From UHGV virus genome UHGV-0131723: a DNA stretch of 41,571 nucleotides; one strand, written 5' to 3'. Below the pieces are notes generated by a model. That model was not told the origin of the DNA. It saw only the letters and a program-made list of their open reading frames with translations, and did no database searches. Shown here one piece after another: positions 15,475 through 40,406 of this stretch. The stretch is from a virus. Each line of letters begins with the position of its first letter. Within the stretch, counting starts at the first letter, position 1. The translations under genes were made by a program, and so were the position numbers.

Positions 15475-15565
15475 TGACTCTTTGAGTGTGGTTATCTAAT
15501 ATTTGCATCAACGGGGAGGGAATGACCTTCCCCACTAAATAAAGTCCTAAACTGGGGATTCAAAA
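15475..15565 (+). promoter_or_regulatory. Type A cassette: promoter + 5' hairpin + RBS
   Basis: TTGACT-N17-TAATAT, then ATCAACGGGGAGGGAATGACCTTCCCCACTAAATAAAGTCCTAAACTGGGGATTC before ATG. Confidence 0.6.
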
Positions 15566-15949
15566 ATGGCTTATCGTGCACCTAAATTCATCAACAAAGA
15601 CAACTTTCGCAACGCACTGGAGAAGTCACTTGATGCAAATTTTAAAGGTAACATTATCATTGTTCACGCATTCAATTTTAAGTATGATGTAAACGGGAAT
15701 AGAATCAACCATTACACGGCAACCATGTTAGATGGTACTCTTTCAAGTGAAAAAGCCATTTTACATGCACTTGCTGGACGTGGTAAAAACCTGATAAAAT
15801 GTGATAAGAGACGTTATCAGGGTGGCGCATATGGTTATGATGATGCTGTTTATCATCTTGAAAATATGGGCTATAAAGTAGAAAAAGCTGGAGTGTCTCA
15901 AATAATCGGTAGTGATGGTTATGTAACTATCTTCAAAATTAACAAATAA
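15566..15949 (+). CDS. Hypothetical small protein (cassette array)
   Basis: ORF track; ATG after cassette RBS; C-terminus ...KINK*. Confidence 0.55.
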   Translation: MAYRAPKFINKDNFRNALEKSLDANFKGNIIIVHAFNFKYDVNGNRINHYTATMLDGTLSSEKAILHALAGRGKNLIKCDKRRYQGGAYGYDDAVYHLENMGYKVEKAGVSQIIGSDGYVTIFKINK

Positions 15950-16329: not shown

Positions 16330-16416
16330 AGTACTTTACAGGGGGCTTAAAAGTTGATATCTTAAGCCCCAGATAAAGAGCTTTACCACTCAATCCTTAA
16401 ACTAGGAGATTCAAAA
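16330..16416 (+). promoter_or_regulatory. Type B cassette
   Basis: Hairpin GGGGCTTAAAAGTTGATATCTTAAGCCCC + AGATAAAGAGCTTTACCACTCAATCCTTAAACTAGGAGA. Confidence 0.6.
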
Positions 16417-16929
16417 ATGAAAACTGTAGACGCTACCTTTGAAGTTGTAAAAGAAAAATTCACCATTATTTACGAAGCTGTCAATTGTTATGAAGCAAGC
16501 CATAATCTTGATAATTGGAAGTTTACAGATGACCATCAAGGCGGCGTGACTGTTAAAAATCCTAACTGTCAGCGTAATGAATTTAAATATGCAATCCCTT
16601 TACATTACAGCCTTAAACAGCTTTCAAGTGACTATGCAAAACAAGGCCGTGAGAATCCATCGAAAGAGGCTTACACGAGCTTACAGAAAGAACTAGAAAG
16701 AGATTTAGAGGCTTCAGAGTATAACCTTGCCGCGAAAGTTGTGGATGCAAACGGTAGCACGGTTTTAGAAAGTTTTTATCTTGGTTATGCTTTCGATTGG
16801 TGCTATCGTGACGGCGATGATTTAGAGGATAGACTAAAAGAAGAGGTGAACAACGCAGACGCAGAATCTGAAGTATTAGAACGTTTGGAATCGTTGAAAG
16901 GCTCAGTGATGAATATCTTTAAGAACTAA
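16417..16929 (+). CDS. Hypothetical protein (cassette array)
   Basis: ORF track; cassette RBS. Confidence 0.55.
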   Translation: MKTVDATFEVVKEKFTIIYEAVNCYEASHNLDNWKFTDDHQGGVTVKNPNCQRNEFKYAIPLHYSLKQLSSDYAKQGRENPSKEAYTSLQKELERDLEASEYNLAAKVVDANGSTVLESFYLGYAFDWCYRDGDDLEDRLKEEVNNADAESEVLERLESLKGSVMNIFKN

Positions 16930-17644: not shown

Positions 17645-17732
17645 CACTGGTTTTTAGATAGATTAAATTACACATCAACGGGGAGGGAATGACCTTCCCC
17701 ACTAAATAAAGTCCTAAACTGGAGATTCCAAA
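17641..17732 (+). promoter_or_regulatory. Type A cassette
   Basis: TTGACA-N17-TAAATT, ACACATCAACGGGGAGGGAATGACCTTCCCC hairpin, GGAG RBS; ~90 bp near-identical to 18505-18597. Confidence 0.65.
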
Positions 17733-18005
17733 ATGTATACTACTAACAACGGTCGTACTTTAAATGTCACACTACGTCACTATGTAGATGGTGTCATGCA
17801 CTTTGAGGATTTACAGGCTGAAACTCATATCTTAGATTGGCAAGTAGCAGGACTCCAAAAAACTGCTACGGGATACGGTAAAAAGATTCCAACCAGTTGG
17901 AAAGTACACTACAAAGGACGTTTGCGCAGAATTTATCAGGATGTGCAAAGCAATAGCGCATCGAGTTACATTATAGTAAAAGGCAAAAAACTGCATTTAA
18001 TGTAA
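17733..18005 (+). CDS. Hypothetical small protein (cassette array)
   Basis: ORF track; cassette RBS. Confidence 0.55.
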   Translation: MYTTNNGRTLNVTLRHYVDGVMHFEDLQAETHILDWQVAGLQKTATGYGKKIPTSWKVHYKGRLRRIYQDVQSNSASSYIIVKGKKLHLM

Positions 18006-18504: not shown

Positions 18505-18597
18505 GTTGACACTGGTTTTTAGATAGATTAAATTACACATCAACGGGGAGGGAATGACCTTCCCCACTAAATAAAGTCCTAAACTGGAGATTCCAAA
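18505..18597 (+). promoter_or_regulatory. Type A cassette
   Basis: TTGACA-N17-TAAATT + hairpin + RBS; duplicate of 17641-17732. Confidence 0.65.
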
Positions 18598-18801
18598 ATG
18601 GCTATTATTAATGGTTTAACCATTGAAACTACACACATCAAAGATATCAAAGTTGGTGATATAGTCCTTTCCCACGGCGTAGAAAAAACTGTCACTGCAA
18701 AGGATATCAAAGAGGATTCTTTCATGGGTAGGACTCTCTTCGGTGATTCTTATTGCTTAGGCTATCTTGCAGTTTTAAAAGTTGTCAAAAATAACAAATA
18801 A
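18598..18801 (+). CDS. Hypothetical small protein (cassette array)
   Basis: ORF track; cassette RBS. Confidence 0.55.
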   Translation: MAIINGLTIETTHIKDIKVGDIVLSHGVEKTVTAKDIKEDSFMGRTLFGDSYCLGYLAVLKVVKNNK

Positions 18802-19136: not shown

Positions 19137-19223
19137 AGTACTTTACAAGGGGCTTATAGTTCGATAAAGTAAGCCCCAGATAAAGAGCTTTACCACTAAA
19201 TCCTTAAACTAGGAGATTCAAAA
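19137..19223 (+). promoter_or_regulatory. Type B cassette
   Basis: Hairpin identical to the one at 15962-15990, then conserved RBS. Confidence 0.6.
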
Positions 19224-19766
19224 ATGAAATGCTATCACGGAACTACTCAAGAAAATTTCCTCAACCTGATTAATAACGGTGATAAACCATCAGGCGCATG
19301 GAATTGTTCGGATATGGACGGCAATTTTTACGTGTATCCAGAAAATAAAATCTATGGCGACGATGAGGAAGAAATAATCTCTGAAGGTATCCAGCAAGCT
19401 TTAGGCAATGCCACTATCACCGCAGCTTTCCAGATGAAGACACAAAATATTGTTATCCTAGAACTTGATATTCCAGAGGATGAACTAAACGATGATTATT
19501 CTTGTGATAATATGTCGAGTGTAGCAAGTTTTACAGAGTATTTTGATATAAATTGGATTAAAAAGGTCTATACAACAGAGTTTAACGCTATGTATTCACC
19601 TTTTTGTCTTCCTTCATTGGATAACCCAAATTTAAACTATCTTGATGAGACATTAGAACTACTTGCTAAAAGTGTTCAACAGTCGGACAGTATTCAGGTT
19701 TTTTGTGACATCATGGATACACTGACAGGAAACATCGCAGAAGAGGATTTAAAGGGTTTTTTCTAA
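19224..19766 (+). CDS. Hypothetical protein (cassette array)
   Basis: ORF track; cassette RBS. Confidence 0.55.
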   Translation: MKCYHGTTQENFLNLINNGDKPSGAWNCSDMDGNFYVYPENKIYGDDEEEIISEGIQQALGNATITAAFQMKTQNIVILELDIPEDELNDDYSCDNMSSVASFTEYFDINWIKKVYTTEFNAMYSPFCLPSLDNPNLNYLDETLELLAKSVQQSDSIQVFCDIMDTLTGNIAEEDLKGFF

Positions 19767-19832: not shown

Positions 19833-20066
19833 ATGCTTACAACCATTTACCTCATCCTTTCTATTTGTAACGGTCATTCATGCGATTTTAAAGGGCTTGA
19901 GGAGTTTACAGGGAGTAAAGAAAATGCTGTTCAAGTGTGCCAGATAGCAAGGCAAGACTATCCCGCCAGTGATGATATACAATGTTACTTTAAGACAGAA
20001 GATGAAGAAGGTGTCTATTTTGACAGCGTAGATGGTCAGTATGAAATTATCATTGAAAAAGACTAG
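19833..20066 (+). CDS. Hypothetical small protein
   Basis: ORF track; preceded by GCCCCTGTAAGGGGC hairpin, not a cassette. Confidence 0.45.
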   Translation: MLTTIYLILSICNGHSCDFKGLEEFTGSKENAVQVCQIARQDYPASDDIQCYFKTEDEEGVYFDSVDGQYEIIIEKD

Positions 20067-20156
20067 ACAAGCCTGATAAAAATCTGTAAATTGTCAATCA
20101 ACGGGGAGGGAATGACCTTCCCCACTAAATAAAGTCCTAAACTGGAGAATCTAAAA
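20064..20156 (+). promoter_or_regulatory. Type A cassette
   Basis: TAGACA-N17-TAAATT + ATCAACGGGGAGGGAATGACCTTCCCC + RBS. Confidence 0.55.
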
Positions 20157-20498
20157 ATGGCTTATGTAACCGTAATTACCGATAAAGCTGGCGCATCTTG
20201 GTCAACTCAGGTCAGTGATAAGATGTCACCTATGCAGTGCCTAAAATACTTTGAACAGTGGAATAAAGGCGAGGACACAAGCCCCTTTCAAGTGATGCAG
20301 ATTATCCATGTAGACAACGAAGGGAATAAAACGACGCTGAATAGTGAGTACTATGCAAGCCGTTTTGAAACGAGAAGTAAAACAATGAAACTTTTACGTG
20401 AATCCGGTTATGCCCATATCGCCGCGTTAATCTGGGATGACCTGCTAAAAAGTCAGCGTATCAGCTATGTAAAACCTGAAAAAATATTCATCAGTTAA
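20157..20498 (+). CDS. Hypothetical protein (cassette array)
   Basis: ORF track; cassette RBS. Confidence 0.55.
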   Translation: MAYVTVITDKAGASWSTQVSDKMSPMQCLKYFEQWNKGEDTSPFQVMQIIHVDNEGNKTTLNSEYYASRFETRSKTMKLLRESGYAHIAALIWDDLLKSQRISYVKPEKIFIS

Positions 20499-20627: not shown

Positions 20628-20716
20628 TTGCAATCAGCTATCAAAACAAGTAAATTACTAATCAACGGGAGGGATGACCTCCCCACTAAATAAAGTCCTA
20701 AACTGGAGATTCTAAA
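20628..20716 (+). promoter_or_regulatory. Type A cassette (variant hairpin)
   Basis: TTGCAA-N17-TAAATT + ACTAATCAACGGGAGGGATGACCTCCCC + RBS. Confidence 0.6.
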
Positions 20717-21247
20717 ATGAACAAATTTCAAGCTATCAACTTCATTCGTTCAAATGCTGTAATGTCTAAGCCTGTAAAAGATACATACGAATTTCGTTGT
20801 AATGGGGTACATTTCGCAACAATCACCAAATCAGAAAACGGGGCTTATTACGTTCATCGTCGTAATGTCTCAACCGTTGTAGTCTCTCACTTTATGCAAG
20901 CTGTAGCGGAATTATTACCGTTATTCTTAGAGATTTATCTAGATGAGTGTAAAAACGTTCACAACCACGTTAAAAACCTTTTAAACGGTTATAAAATGGC
21001 TTATGAACGTTCTATCAAGTCACTAAACAAGTTTTACAATGCACCTGCAAATACTGTTTCAATGGCTTATGATGTAAACGGTGAGTTAGTTAGTCTCTTT
21101 AAAGTGGAAGAAATTAAACTGTATAATTTACGTCCTAGTGGTTACTCTAAGACTCTCGGTGAAGGTTTATCCTTCAATATCAAGAACTTAGAAAAAACTT
21201 TAAAAGACATTGAAAAAGATATTGACGAGACACTTAAAAGTCTGTAA
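20717..21247 (+). CDS. Hypothetical protein (cassette array)
   Basis: ORF track; cassette RBS. Confidence 0.55.
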   Translation: MNKFQAINFIRSNAVMSKPVKDTYEFRCNGVHFATITKSENGAYYVHRRNVSTVVVSHFMQAVAELLPLFLEIYLDECKNVHNHVKNLLNGYKMAYERSIKSLNKFYNAPANTVSMAYDVNGELVSLFKVEEIKLYNLRPSGYSKTLGEGLSFNIKNLEKTLKDIEKDIDETLKSL

Positions 21248-21313
21248 ATTGTCAATCAACGGGGAGGGAATGACCTTCCCCACTAAATAAAGTCCTAAAC
21301 TGGAGTTATCAAG
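21223..21313 (+). promoter_or_regulatory. Type A cassette
   Basis: TTGACG-N16-TAAATT inside 3' end of upstream gene + hairpin + RBS. Confidence 0.55.
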
Positions 21314-21577
21314 ATGGAAAACGTAGAATTAACCACACTTTTACAAATTGCAACCGACAAAGAAGATGTAGCATTATTTCACCGTATCGAAAGTGATTTG
21401 TTCAATGGTGAAATCATCAAAGAATCTTACGAAGTTGTCGGATTCAAAGATGGTAAAGCGTTTGGCTTTTTTGACCTCGATAAAGGCAACGCTGTTACAA
21501 AGTATGATGTTGTATCTTGTGAGATTCTTACAAAATACAACGAAAAAAGGCTTGCAACATACGCCAATATGCAGTAA
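21314..21577 (+). CDS. Hypothetical small protein (cassette array)
   Basis: ORF track; cassette RBS. Confidence 0.55.
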   Translation: MENVELTTLLQIATDKEDVALFHRIESDLFNGEIIKESYEVVGFKDGKAFGFFDLDKGNAVTKYDVVSCEILTKYNEKRLATYANMQ

Positions 21578-21643
21578 ATTACTAATCAACGGGAGGCGAT
21601 AACCTCCCCACTAAATAAAACCCTTAAACTAGGAGATTCAAAA
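21552..21643 (+). promoter_or_regulatory. Type A cassette (variant hairpin)
   Basis: TTGCAA-N17-TAAATT + ACTAATCAACGGGAGGCGATAACCTCCCC + RBS. Confidence 0.6.
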
Positions 21644-21892
21644 ATGGCAACTATCCGCGCTACTGTTAACGAGTTCGGTTTTTCCTCTCTGGATGTTAAA
21701 TTTGACATTGCAGGCACTGATAACGCCTTTGAAATGGTGAAATGTCTTATCAGTCAGACCATCAAAGACTATAATCCTTCGGATGAGTTCTGGGAGGAAA
21801 CAAAACAAGAAGTTCTCAAGGATGGTTATACTTATCACTATTGGGGAGAAAAAATCGTCTCCCTGTACTACAACAAACAAGATTATAACTAA
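21644..21892 (+). CDS. Hypothetical small protein (last cassette-array gene)
   Basis: ORF track; cassette RBS. Confidence 0.55.
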   Translation: MATIRATVNEFGFSSLDVKFDIAGTDNAFEMVKCLISQTIKDYNPSDEFWEETKQEVLKDGYTYHYWGEKIVSLYYNKQDYN

Positions 21893-21930
21893 TCGACGCA
21901 GCGGGGCTATTTAGCCCCAGATACCCTAAC

Positions 21931-21956
21931 AGCCCCTATTTAAAGGGGCTTTTTTA
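21931..21956 (+). terminator. Rho-independent terminator closing the plus-strand block
   Basis: AGCCCCT-ATTTAA-AGGGGCT + TTTTTT; preceded by a GGGGCTATTTAGCCCC hairpin. Confidence 0.65.
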
Positions 21957-22299
21957 CGTCTATCGAATCCTTATACAATCCCTTTCCCTCACCTTTCCAG
22001 AATCTTATCAGACCTTAAAAGCAATAACTCTATAGTCTACTCTATAACCTCTTATCAAATCAACTTAAATATAAGCCCATAACCCGAAAGGGAAGGGCAA
22101 CCCCTTAAACGCTCTATAACGCCCTATAACAGCCTTATCAACCTAACTTAAGGGGTTGCATTAACTCACCCTAAAAAGCCCTTCCTAGAGCTTCCCAGAG
22201 ACTTAAAAGAATCTTATAAGGGTGTAAGCTTTATCATCTCATTAGTATTCTTGTGAATAACTAAACAACCCCTTGATAGTCACTAAAAAGTATGTTATA

Positions 22300-22386
22300 G
22301 GGGCTTTAAAGTTACGTAAAAGGGGCTATAAAGTTACGTAAAAGGGGCTATAAAGTTACGTAAATGCTAGCCCCCTTAACATTTTC
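22300..22386. repeat. Four tandem copies of a 22-bp unit
   Basis: GGGGCT(T/A)TAAAGTTACGTAAAA x4, head to tail. Confidence 0.8.
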
Positions 22387-23350
22387 TTAACAATTTCTTA
22401 ACAATCCCTACATAGTTATGCTTTTAAGGCACTTGTTAGCAACTTGTTAGCCCCTTGTTAAATCTCTGTTAAAACCACGTAAAAGCCTTGTAAGAACCTT
22501 TGACATAGCCTTTAAAGCCCCTGTAAAGCCCTATAAAGAGGTATCTGTACAGTTGGGGTGTAATTACTAGGAAGAGGTTTAAAAGAGCTTACAAGGGGCT
22601 ATAGAGAGCTTTTAAGAGGTATGTTTAAAGAATCACTAAGAAAGGAAAGGGAACGATAAGGAAAGAGTAGTGACCATGTTAATAGATTGTTAAAAAGATT
22701 AAACACTTGTTAGAAACTTGTTAATTATCTTAACAAAATAACTCTTAAAAATTAACTTGTTAGCTCTTGTTAGTCATCTGTTAAGATTCTGTAAAGCCTA
22801 TTCAGCACTTGTTAGAAAACTGTTACGCTCTTGTTAGTTCTGTTAAGAATCTGTTAAGACCTTTGAAGAGATGTTAAGAAGATGTAGTAACTGTTAAGAG
22901 ATTGTTAAGGATATTTTAAAATTTTGCAAAGTACTTGTAAGGGAGCTGTTAAGGGCTACCAAGCAGATATACATCTTCTACAGATATTTTTCAGTTCCTT
23001 CAAAGACCCTAAAAAATGACTTGATAGTCCTATTTTATAAAAATTTTAAAAATCTGAATAATTACCTATACAGTCTTTCTAAAATACAGGTAATAACAGG
23101 CTTATAAGATACCTTGTTAGTACCGTGTTAGACCTTGTGAGATAAGGCCTGTAAAGATATTCCTGTTAAGTTTGTTAAAACAGTCTATATAGAGGCTTAG
23201 TAGCACCTAGTGAACACCTATAGAGAGTGTCATAGCTGACATAGAGATTAAGAGGTGTATAGGAGCTTCTAAGAGTGTATAGAGAGATGGTTAAGGTGAT
23301 TGTATAGGTTGTTAAGAAGGCTTGTTAGAGGGCTTGTTAGAAGGATTATA
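22380..23350. repeat. Dispersed short-repeat field
   Basis: More than 25 copies of (C)TTGTTA(G/A)/CTGTTAAG (some inverted as CTTAACAA), often 8-12 bp apart. Confidence 0.7.
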
Positions 23351-23535
23351 CAGAGGGGCTATTAAGACCACTAGGTAGTTACTAAGATACTATATAGTAC
23401 TATATAACTATATAGAGAGTAAGATTAAAAAGGTTGTTAAGAAGGATAGATATTTTGTTCACATATGATGGTGACCCAGAGGTTGGGACAACCGATAAAA
23501 TTTTATAAAAAATATAAATTTCGTAAATTTTACTC

Positions 23536-23562
23536 AATAAAAAGCCCCCAATTAAGGAGGCT
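23536..23562 (-). terminator. Rho-independent terminator closing the minus-strand block
   Basis: On minus strand AGCCTCC-TTAATT-GGGGGCT then TTTTATT. Confidence 0.55.
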
Positions 23563-23573
23563 ATTAAGATATT

Positions 23574-24167
23574 TTAAATCAGTGTTTCCAGAACTGTTTT
23601 TAATGATGACTTGGTTGTCTGATAAAAATGAGTGAATCCGTTGTTGTTATCAAATACCTGCATCATGATATCATCTCCCTTGATTGGATACACTCGGATA
23701 TCATAGTGAAACCCATTAAAGACAGCAGAACCATTACAGAATACACTAAAATCACTTGCTGAGATATACTCTTCATGACCTGTGATTTTTATACAAACAC
23801 CTTTACTCGGTCTCTTAGGATTGATATCTTCCATCACAGACATACTCTGTCCACCAAGAGATACCATAGTGACTACTTTACGGTTCTTCTGTCTAAAGTA
23901 CATCTTAACTTTCTGCAAAGTGTCTTCATAGAACGGATAAGACCTTTCTACAAAGATTCCTTCAAGTGGCTCTTTACCATTTTCAACTTCTCTGTTATGC
24001 CGTACTGCAAAGATAATTTGTTCGAACCAGTCAAGATTTTCTTCGGAGAGTGCTTCCCGAATATCACTCCAATCAAGGACTAGGTAGTTACCTTCAACTT
24101 CTTTTAAGTTATCTTTTTCCATAGCTATCACACCATTATCGTAAAACTTGGTAAGCTGGAACTGCAA
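23574..24167 (-). CDS. Hypothetical protein
   Basis: ORF track; last gene of minus block. Confidence 0.5.
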   Translation of the reverse strand: MQFQLTKFYDNGVIAMEKDNLKEVEGNYLVLDWSDIREALSEENLDWFEQIIFAVRHNREVENGKEPLEGIFVERSYPFYEDTLQKVKMYFRQKNRKVVTMVSLGGQSMSVMEDINPKRPSKGVCIKITGHEEYISASDFSVFCNGSAVFNGFHYDIRVYPIKGDDIMMQVFDNNNGFTHFYQTTKSSLKTVLETLI

Positions 24168-38783: not shown

Positions 38784-38804
38784 TTCTATTTGCGGAGGTG
38801 CTTA

Positions 38805-40406
38805 ATGGACTTAAATGCTGTTAAGCAGAAGCGAGTGGAAGATGTTAGGAAAGTCCTAGCTGGAGAGTTGGGGCTTTCTGATGAAGTAAAAGAAATTATC
38901 AAATCATTCGGTAAAGACCCCTCTAAATTCCTTCCAACTCAAATTCTGACTTTATTAAGATACACACCAGACCAAGTTAGACTTATCTTCAAATTGATGA
39001 CTGATAAGAACTATGTAGCCCCTCAGCCGGGTTCTCAAGAGGTCTTTTTAAATACTAATGCTGACTTGGTTCTCTATGGTGGTGCTGCGGGTGCTGGTAA
39101 GACTGCTGCATTGTTAATGGACTCTTTAAGGTTTATTGACGACCCTAATTATAACGCTGTATATTTCCGTCGAAATACAACACAGTTACAAGGTGGTTTG
39201 TGGCCTGCTGCAAAGAAACTATTTGGTAAGTTTGGTGGGGTTCCTCACGAGCAGAAGATGACTATCACATTCCCTTCTGGGGCAACTATCAAGTTTACCT
39301 ATCTAGAACTTGAAAAGCACGCTGAAGGTCATCAGGGTATTGAATACTCAGCTATTTACTTTGACGAAGGTACGCACTTCTCTGCTTCACAGATTTCATA
39401 CCTACAGACTCGTCTACGTTCTGGGGCTGAAGGCGATTCATACATGAAGATTTCTATGAACCCAGACAGAGACCATTTTATTTACGATTGGGTAGAACCT
39501 TTCTTAGATGAAGAAGGTTATCCAGACCCTGAAAAGTGTGGTCGTATTCGTTGGTATGTAATGAATGATGGTGTGATGGTTTCTGATTGGGAGAGAGACA
39601 AGATTCTTGAAATGTTCCCTCTTGAGATTCCTCAAACATACACCTTTATCTCTGGTACGATTGATGATAACCCAATCCTTGACTTCTTAGAACCTAAGTA
39701 CCGTGGTAAGTTGGAAAACAACACCCCTGTAAACGTTGCAAGACTTCGTTTCGGTAACTGGAAGGCTCGTGCAGAAGGTTCAAACTACTGGCAAAGACAA
39801 TGGTGTGAGATTGTTGATTCACTCCCAGAAGATGTATTTGATGTTAGAGCATGGGACTTAGCAGCAACTTTACCATCTGAGATTAACCCTAATCCAGACT
39901 GGACAGCAGGTGTTAAGATGGGTAAATCTAAAAAAGACGGTTGCTATTATATCATTGATGTAGTAAGATTTAGAGATAGACCCTCTGGAGTCGAAACACA
40001 AATTAATTTGACTGCTGAAAGTGACGGTAAGCGAACTGGTATTTTTATCCCTCAAGACCCAGGCGCTGCTGGTAAATCCTACGCAACATCCCTCATCAGG
40101 AAACTTGCCGAGAAAGGCTATCGTGCAAGAGCTAAACCAACAAATAAAGATAAAGTTACCCGATTTGCGGGGTTTTCTGCTGCTTCTGAAGCTGGACTTG
40201 TAAAAGTCTTGAGAGGTAGTTGGAATGAAGCTTACTTTCAAGAGCTTGAAGGCTTTTGTGGTGACGGCAAAACTAAAGATGACCAAGTGGATGCTACCAG
40301 TGATGCTTTCAACAGTCTTAACGAAGTTAAATTATTCAAGCCACCATCAATGGGTGCTCACACAGACTTAGTGAGAGGAAACCCATATGAGGGGCTTAGA
40401 CGTTGA
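38805..40406 (+). CDS. Terminase large subunit
   Basis: Walker A-like LYGGAAGAGKTAALL near N-terminus; ~530 aa; ORF-track TTG start replaced by ATG at 38805 after GGAGG. Confidence 0.8.
   Translation: MDLNAVKQKRVEDVRKVLAGELGLSDEVKEIIKSFGKDPSKFLPTQILTLLRYTPDQVRLIFKLMTDKNYVAPQPGSQEVFLNTNADLVLYGGAAGAGKTAALLMDSLRFIDDPNYNAVYFRRNTTQLQGGLWPAAKKLFGKFGGVPHEQKMTITFPSGATIKFTYLELEKHAEGHQGIEYSAIYFDEGTHFSASQISYLQTRLRSGAEGDSYMKISMNPDRDHFIYDWVEPFLDEEGYPDPEKCGRIRWYVMNDGVMVSDWERDKILEMFPLEIPQTYTFISGTIDDNPILDFLEPKYRGKLENNTPVNVARLRFGNWKARAEGSNYWQRQWCEIVDSLPEDVFDVRAWDLAATLPSEINPNPDWTAGVKMGKSKKDGCYYIIDVVRFRDRPSGVETQINLTAESDGKRTGIFIPQDPGAAGKSYATSLIRKLAEKGYRARAKPTNKDKVTRFAGFSAASEAGLVKVLRGSWNEAYFQELEGFCGDGKTKDDQVDATSDAFNSLNEVKLFKPPSMGAHTDLVRGNPYEGLRR

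Follow-up and report, generated by a model that had tools for sequence, protein, structure and literature searches.

The window analyzed here is the whole 41,571-nucleotide stretch of the UHGV virus genome UHGV-0131723. Positions 21900–23600 match 257 phage records at 85–93% identity, nearly all of which are Felix O1-like myophages with E. coli, Salmonella, Shigella and Citrobacter as hosts, and the window itself is a Felix O1-like myophage of the genus Felixounavirus. It shows the Felix O1 arrangement, with a tRNA cluster and the large terminase gene, TerL, at 38790–40406 (phrog_979). Between 33206 and 38357, the plus strand has 24 tRNA matches, three of them near the Rfam threshold, which is typical for Felix O1-like phages. 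A block of early genes on the plus strand and a gene block on the minus strand converge on a zone at 21957–23535, and the hairpins with T-runs that an initial annotation of this DNA took for convergent terminators are indeed found on both sides (21931–21950 on the plus strand and 23562–23543 on the minus strand). Annotated relatives have an equivalent gap of ~1.6 kb between the last small plus-strand gene and the first minus-strand gene, with an annotated terminator on each side. We also agree that the zone lacks a credible open reading frame (ORF), because none of 60 or more codons lies between 21892 and 23574. Inside the zone there are only six ORFs of 25–35 codons, most of which are broken among relatives; of 13 relatives, about half keep four of the six unbroken, and the two retained ones sit in near-invariant DNA.

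The intergenic spaces of the plus-strand early block carry a repeated cassette, in which the hairpin GGGGAGGGAATGACCTTCCCC is followed by the invariant leader ACTAAATAAAGTCCTAAACTGGAGATTC and then by a start codon. Two copies are preceded by a promoter of the form TTGACA-N17-TAAATT (17641 and 18506). This cassette looks like a reused module of early promoter and 5′ leader.

Table 1. Features of the non-coding zone and related elements. Positions are those of the window, except in the last row, where they refer to the relatives named.
Feature	Position	Strand	Remarks
Early-block cassettes	15490-15580, 17650-17750, 18515-18610, 20040-20165, 20635-20725, 21230-21320, 21560-21650	+	
Shorter early-block cassettes	16380-16440, 19185-19240	+	
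Intrinsic terminator ending the plus-strand early-gene block	21931-21956	+	7-bp stem, 5 GC pairs, T-run; annotated in AYO145A and Moogle
Left non-coding flank, unique DNA inside the right virion end	21957-22298	.	conservation 0.82-0.96 across 14 phages
Three tandem 22-bp units (AGGGGCTATAAAGTTACGTAAA)	22299-22364	+	3.0 copies, 97% matches
Left boundary word, GCTA-GCCCCCTTAACAT	22366-22382	+	inverted copy of the right boundary word
Direct terminal repeat (DTR) homolog, 591 bp	22370-22960	.	relatives' terminal duplications, UAB_69 DTR, UAB_Phi87 repeat
Three inverted heptamers (TTAACA on the plus strand)	22377-22403	-	at 22377, 22388 and 22399; 11 bp apart; conservation 0.97-1.00
Four CTTGTTAG/CTGTTAA heptamers	22434-22471	+	11-bp steps
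Main heptamer cluster, right half of the repeat	22677-22951	+	17 TGTTA cores on the plus strand, one on the minus strand; mostly 9-11 bp apart
Right boundary word, CTGTTAAGGGCTACC-AAGCAGATATACA	22946-22973	+	invariant in 14 of 14 aligned phages
Right non-coding flank, unique DNA inside the left virion end	22961-23535	.	plus-strand heptamers, AT-rich tract, TATAGAG words
Intrinsic terminator ending the minus-strand gene block	23536-23562	-	hairpin and T-run; annotated in AYO145A and Moogle
AATTGGTATTGTTACCAATCCC copies in relatives	L004 362-383; L012 372-491 (three copies, 49 bp apart); L017 532-553; L021 1173-1194		

The initial annotation was right about the terminators, the absence of ORFs and the dense repeats between them, but it misjudged the copy number of a 22-bp unit, the base composition of the left part and the orientation of the heptamers. 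The 22-bp unit, reported as four tandem copies at 22300–22386, is present in 3.0 copies that end earlier (Table 1). The segment at 21960–22260 had been called pyrimidine-rich; it contains just 54.8% pyrimidine, and its true asymmetry is an excess of C relative to G, with GC skew values of −0.16 for the left part and +0.27 for the right part. The left flank carries words of the CTCTATA/CTTATCA type that are the reverse complement of the TATAGAG words on the right, and TATAGAG is a second word with a left/right inversion like that of the heptamer. The AT-rich palindromic repeats placed at 23380–23420 are present as three copies of TACTATATAG at 23388–23415, and a further AT-rich tract lies around 23030–23060 within the right flank.

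The heptamer had been described as more than 25 copies of (C)TTGTTA(G/A) in both orientations. That count is sustained by 27 exact copies of YTGTTAR between 22387 and 23440, compared with 40 in the other ~40.5 kb, but the orientations are far from balanced, with 24 copies on the plus strand and three on the minus strand. The core TGTTA occurs 29 times on the plus strand and six times on the minus strand, against 2.6 expected per strand. TGTTA(A/G) is enriched about 11-fold in the zone, and its copies are mostly 11 bp apart; on the plus strand, successive spacings are exactly 11 bp in 11 of 28 cases and 9–13 bp in 15 of 28. Plus-strand heptamers continue into the right flank at 23115/23126, 23164/23173, 23310/23323/23335 and 23435.

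Weaker database matches led to relatives whose records start or end within the zone, and for four of them we compared the two ends. In Ro111lw, I14.1 and NBSal004, a terminal sequence of 613, 581 and 694 bp, respectively, recurs at the opposite end with 100% identity, and these exact duplications map to window positions 22370 and 22960. The three records start with GCCCCCTTAACA / GCCCCCTTAACATTTTC and end with GTTAAGGGCTACC. Records of E9 and ECP2307 also open at 22370, and that of EcSzw_1 opens at 22960. REP10 has a 77-bp terminal overlap, which is far shorter than 581–694 bp and starts 20 bp inside the others, and we took it to be an assembly overlap and not a DTR. The "repeat_region" features of garuso and similar records were likewise set aside; they span only 30–34 bp and bear no relation to the termini.

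Published work on virion DNA places the ends of relatives in about the same positions. The 608-bp repeat of UAB_Phi87 was mapped on virion DNA by run-off sequencing together with Bal31 digestion, and its sequence is printed in the supplement of a paper that also gives a large-terminase clade assignment (PMC4837284). Reading the printed ends of this DTR (AACATTTTCTTAACAA...GTTAAGGGCTACCAA) against the window puts it at about 22378–22962. PhageTerm called a 613-bp repeat for Ro111lw (PMC6454146) and a 581-bp repeat for Pr103Blw (PMC8303462), and the range of DTR lengths reported for Felix O1-like phages is about 580–610 bp (PMC4837284, PMC8303462). The GenBank "DTR" feature of UAB_69 corresponds to window positions 22368–22962. 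Mapped cuts thus differ by 2–8 nt according to method, falling at 22368, 22370 or ~22378 on the left and at 22960–22962 on the right. The identity of the zone as the DTR region of Felix O1-like phages is therefore already published, and it is annotated in GenBank.

Because the mapped ends of relatives fall at 22370 and 22960, we infer by homology that a Felix O1-like phage has its concatemer junction in this zone. Both DTR boundaries of the relatives lie inside the zone, which bears out the terminal-repeat or packaging alternative of the initial annotation. The window holds a single copy of the repeat, and its own termini are assigned by homology at 86–92% identity; the DTR is present once because assembly collapses the two virion copies. 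It is flanked by conserved non-coding DNA, 413 bp of which would lie inside the right virion end and 575 bp inside the left end. The terminator of the plus-strand block is the final transcription signal ahead of the right virion end.

Two of the matching GenBank records have irregularities of their own. PP892526.1 (vB_EcoM_I14.1) bears the taxonomy line Tequintavirus (Demerecviridae), yet both of its ends align to the window at 87–92% identity, and its label was probably swapped with that of another phage from the same announcement. GU169904.1 (Staphylococcus phage SA1, 147 kb) matches a Felix O1-type zone at 88% identity over its positions 135456–137045; the presence of this zone in a Staphylococcus phage record suggests a chimeric or mixed assembly.

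To compare the zone between phages, we aligned 14 phages of the genera Felixounavirus and Mooglevirus and expressed column identity relative to the window. Mean column identity is 0.8–0.96 over nearly the whole zone, the exception being the 22-bp tandem units, whose copy number is variable. The zone is 78% identical to that of Moogle, compared with 50–75% for most of the flanking genes. Poor conservation among relatives, which the initial annotation named as evidence that would speak against a function, is thus the opposite of what we find, since the zone exceeds its neighboring genes in conservation. The left flank, at 77–90% identity to Moogle, is the part of the zone most conserved between the genera and contains invariant blocks. 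Constraint therefore covers the entire zone and extends beyond the repeat alone. The heptamer array cannot account for all of this constraint, because the most conserved part, the left flank, lies outside the repeat and contains different words. We also considered a hairpin in the left flank formed by a perfect 12-bp inverted repeat (GCAACCCCTTAA / TTAAGGGGTTGC, ~22096–22160), which is not kept in relatives and was therefore discarded as a functional element.

A more distant phage retains the organization of the zone after most of its sequence has diverged. In Erwinia phage phiEa104 (Kolesnikvirus), just ~125 bp around the right boundary still aligns. Its 1.4-kb gap nevertheless follows the same order: it begins on the left with an array of another word, TTCTAAR, continues with inverted TAACA copies where the left boundary has its homolog, and then has phased TGTTAAG words and AAGCAGATATACA. 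The array thus keeps its polarity and spacing in phiEa104 despite the loss of alignment over most of the zone. The record of Erwinia phage Prophecy, which aligns to phiEa104 at 95% identity, opens at the homologous left boundary, AGCCACTTTTACA, and short DTRs have been reported by PhageTerm for other Kolesnikviruses. A scan of IMG/VR with the invariant 26-mer of the right boundary retrieved 27 contigs of 52–94 kb.

Both boundaries of the repeat are marked by nearly the same word. The invariant stretch at the right boundary is 27 nt long (TGTTAAGGGCTACCAAGCAGATATACA) and spans TGTTAAGGGCTACC to ATATACA. At the left boundary, none of the 14 phages from the two genera deviates in the core TAGCCCCCTT, and the remainder of the word is nearly invariant. 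Read inward from either end, both boundaries are TAGCCC(CC)TTAACA, and the two repeat ends form an inverted repeat of 38 nt with 82% complementarity. Compared with the mapped ends, the two inverted words are shifted by ~4 nt. The heptamers face outward at both repeat ends, the trio at the left end being inverted and nearly all others pointing rightward. TGTTA cores score higher in conservation than the spacers between them (0.95 versus 0.87, p = 4e-8), and the cores of the main cluster are conserved at 0.80–1.00. In the complete, end-resolved genome of Ro111lw, YTGTTAR occurs 27 times in the first kilobase and 22 times in the last, compared with a mean of 1.1 and a maximum of 4 per kilobase outside the terminal kilobases; 23 of the 25 phased TGTTA pairs in that genome are terminal. 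The binding array proposed in the initial annotation is compatible with this and likely, to judge from phased, polar and invariant words that occur at genome ends only.

The tandem 22-bp units stop 5 bp short of the left repeat boundary, and each contains the perfect palindrome TTACGTAA. Their number varies among relatives, and the unit closest to the boundary is nearly invariant across genera. This unit may be a separate, putative protein-binding site beside the cut site.

Other short elements come and go around the boundaries. The terminal repeats of different relatives contain between zero and three copies of another 22-bp palindromic insert, AATTGGTATTGTTACCAATCCC, which the window lacks; in phage L27 it is located elsewhere, in the left flank. 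It explains much of the variation in repeat length between 581 and 694 bp. The insert contains a TTGTTA word and behaves like a small mobile or expandable unit. To the right of window position 22980, Moogle (L009) and SP116 (L016) share a 24-bp insertion resembling GGTAGATTCTACCGAATCAACT between two CAGATAT words, directly after the right repeat boundary; these two carriers belong to different genera. L27, Mushroom and UAB_Phi87 have comparable short insertions with ATAGAATCT/CGAATC words in their left flanks.

The best explanation of the zone as a whole is a concatemer junction that contains a collapsed DTR, boundary words cut by terminase and a TGTTA(A/G) recognition array, a reading to which we assign a probability of about 0.85. 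By analogy with T7-type packaging, a terminase complex would recognize the junction in replicated head-to-tail DNA and cut or nick it at the two mutually inverted boundary words, TAGCCC(CC)TTAACA. The repeat would then be copied, so that every virion DNA has one at each end. More speculatively, the ~35 outward-facing TGTTA(A/G) words, which follow one another at intervals of about one helical turn, could serve as the binding array of the recognition component, putatively a small-terminase-like protein or another phage DNA-binding protein, with the heptamer plus GGG marking the cleavage site. We advance only tentatively the stronger idea that the array is a self-contained packaging "centromere", conserved in at least four Ounavirinae genera while the DNA around it diverged, in which the phased heptamer would recruit a recognition protein and its GGG-extended inverted form would set both cuts and thereby the length of the repeat. 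If that idea were true, Felix O1-like phages would offer a convenient system for studying how phages with short repeats measure and copy their ends.

We looked for a protein that could bind the array and found no candidate among the neighbors of TerL or the proteins flanking the zone. TerL is the sole terminase subunit reported in the Felix O1 genome paper (PMC3185647), and no small terminase is recognizable in the window. Encoded upstream of TerL is an acidic 66-residue protein that matches neither a known domain nor an informative family, and the TerL neighbors of 265 and 185 residues are DUF7217 and DUF7338 proteins; all three were rejected as binders. The proteins flanking the zone have no Pfam match, and none of these candidates carries sequence hints of DNA binding.

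We next weighed the other functions that such a zone could have. The array could be, or contain, a replication origin that the terminal repeat overlaps, with the heptamers as iterons for an initiator and the AT-rich tract at ~23030–23060 as the unwinding element. This reading is compatible with terminal-repeat identity, and the two are not mutually exclusive: dense direct repeats do adjoin an AT-rich tract, conservation extends past the repeat itself, and the T7 promoters phiOL and phiOR, which are associated with replication, are annotated close to the ends of that genome. However, a 7-bp core at an 11-bp pitch does not match the 17–22-bp iterons of plasmid or lambdoid origins, an adjacent initiator-like gene was not found (the flanking proteins lack a Pfam domain), and the outward-facing words define the mapped cut sites, a better fit to packaging. 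The GC skew was discarded as evidence for an origin because its turn follows the switch in gene orientation. We consider an origin within the array unlikely. The heptamers might instead be sites for a nucleoid or regulatory protein, of host or phage origin, with a role outside packaging, such as protection or tethering of the DNA ends after injection, end-to-end recombination into concatemers, or action as a decoy. A terminal-only array that is polar and phased at one helical turn would suit such a protein, and the terminase small subunit is not known in these phages (PMC3185647). Yet the heptamer forms both cut-site words, which ties it to the formation of ends; we regard a non-packaging binder as quite unlikely.

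A last possibility, also raised in the initial annotation, is that one or more structured non-coding RNAs are transcribed between the two terminators. The zone is highly conserved and lacks ORFs, there is a weak promoter-like site on the minus strand at 23527–23500, just past the terminator, and the 150-nt segment at 22250–22399 (minus strand) has a folding z-score of −4.3. That outlier, however, spans the palindromic tandem 22-bp units, and the other folding z-scores range from −2.9 to +1.1. Promoter-like matches number 10, compared with 7.8 ± 3.0 in shuffled sequences, every match in the zone scores 9 of 12, and no promoter in the zone has the early form of this phage, TTGACA-N17-TAAATT. No Rfam family matches positions 21957–23535, and conservation tracks short words rather than paired segments. 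With no Rfam match, strong promoter or consistent folding signal, a structured RNA is highly improbable. Among the four readings first offered for the zone, the terminal repeat or packaging site is the one that is upheld, and the structured RNA has no support.

The concatemer-junction reading has practical consequences. The physical ends fix the true gene order, in which the early plus-strand block runs into the right end and the minus-strand block into the left end. For annotators, the 1.6-kb "gap" is cis-acting DNA and not a place of overlooked genes. For those who engineer therapeutic or diagnostic Felix O1-like phages, it is a region to keep intact or to supply on a plasmid for packaging.

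The DTRs of the Felix O1-like phages UAB_Phi87, Ro111lw, Pr103Blw and UAB_69 resemble that of the window in having homologous sequence, both boundary words and a position between the same convergent gene blocks. Repeat length is also similar (591 bp in the window), and the differences lie in indels, notably the 22-bp palindromic insert with its variable copy number (0–3). The mapped ends are those of UAB_Phi87, Ro111lw and Pr103Blw, whereas the ends of the present phage are assigned by homology. The portions of the DTR papers available to us give the length or sequence of the repeat and offer no discussion of the heptamer array, of how it is phased or of the inversion of the boundary words (PMC4837284, PMC6454146, PMC8303462). 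On this subject the Felix O1 genome paper goes no further than "short terminal repeats" and other repeats (PMC3185647), and papers on VpaE1, Moogle, Mijalis and PhageMaP/Bas63 contain nothing further on the zone. The grammar of the array, meaning its phasing, polarity, inverted boundary words and persistence across genera, appears to be undescribed in the searchable literature.

Among systems outside this group, the iteron origins of plasmids and lambdoid phages share clustered direct repeats beside an AT-rich tract in non-coding DNA. They differ from the zone, whose repeat unit is far smaller, which has no initiator gene next to it, and whose array falls on mapped genome termini. The closest analog is T7, in which small terminase binds Pac signals at the junction and large terminase cuts there (PMC9860248). 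As expected of a T7-type DTR, termini are fixed on virion DNA in UAB_Phi87, Ro111lw and Pr103Blw according to the literature, the same sequence is found at both virion ends in the homologs Ro111lw, I14.1 and NBSal004, and conserved boundary elements occupy homologous positions in 14 phages of two genera. The heptamer array also has the properties of a T7-like array, being a one-orientation word that is terminal and rare elsewhere. T7 has a recognized small terminase, gp18, and this phage has none that is recognizable. The T7 arrays of CCTAAAG are named SRL and SRR, its packaging signals are PacB and PacC, and to our knowledge the function of its heptamer arrays has not been established. T7 transcribes across its junction, whereas the zone described here is insulated by convergent terminators. 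The T7 terminal repeat is 160 bp long, and 16 of the 22 genomic copies of CCTAAAG lie in or beside it, in one orientation and often 13 bp apart, compared with the 11-bp pitch of TGTTA(A/G) in the window. Read rather than aligned, the two sequences differ in both words and spacing, and the relationship is one of analogy only, not homology. The repeat in the window is about four times as long as that of T7, its array is much larger and, unlike the single-orientation CCTAAAG, its heptamer is inverted at the left repeat end.
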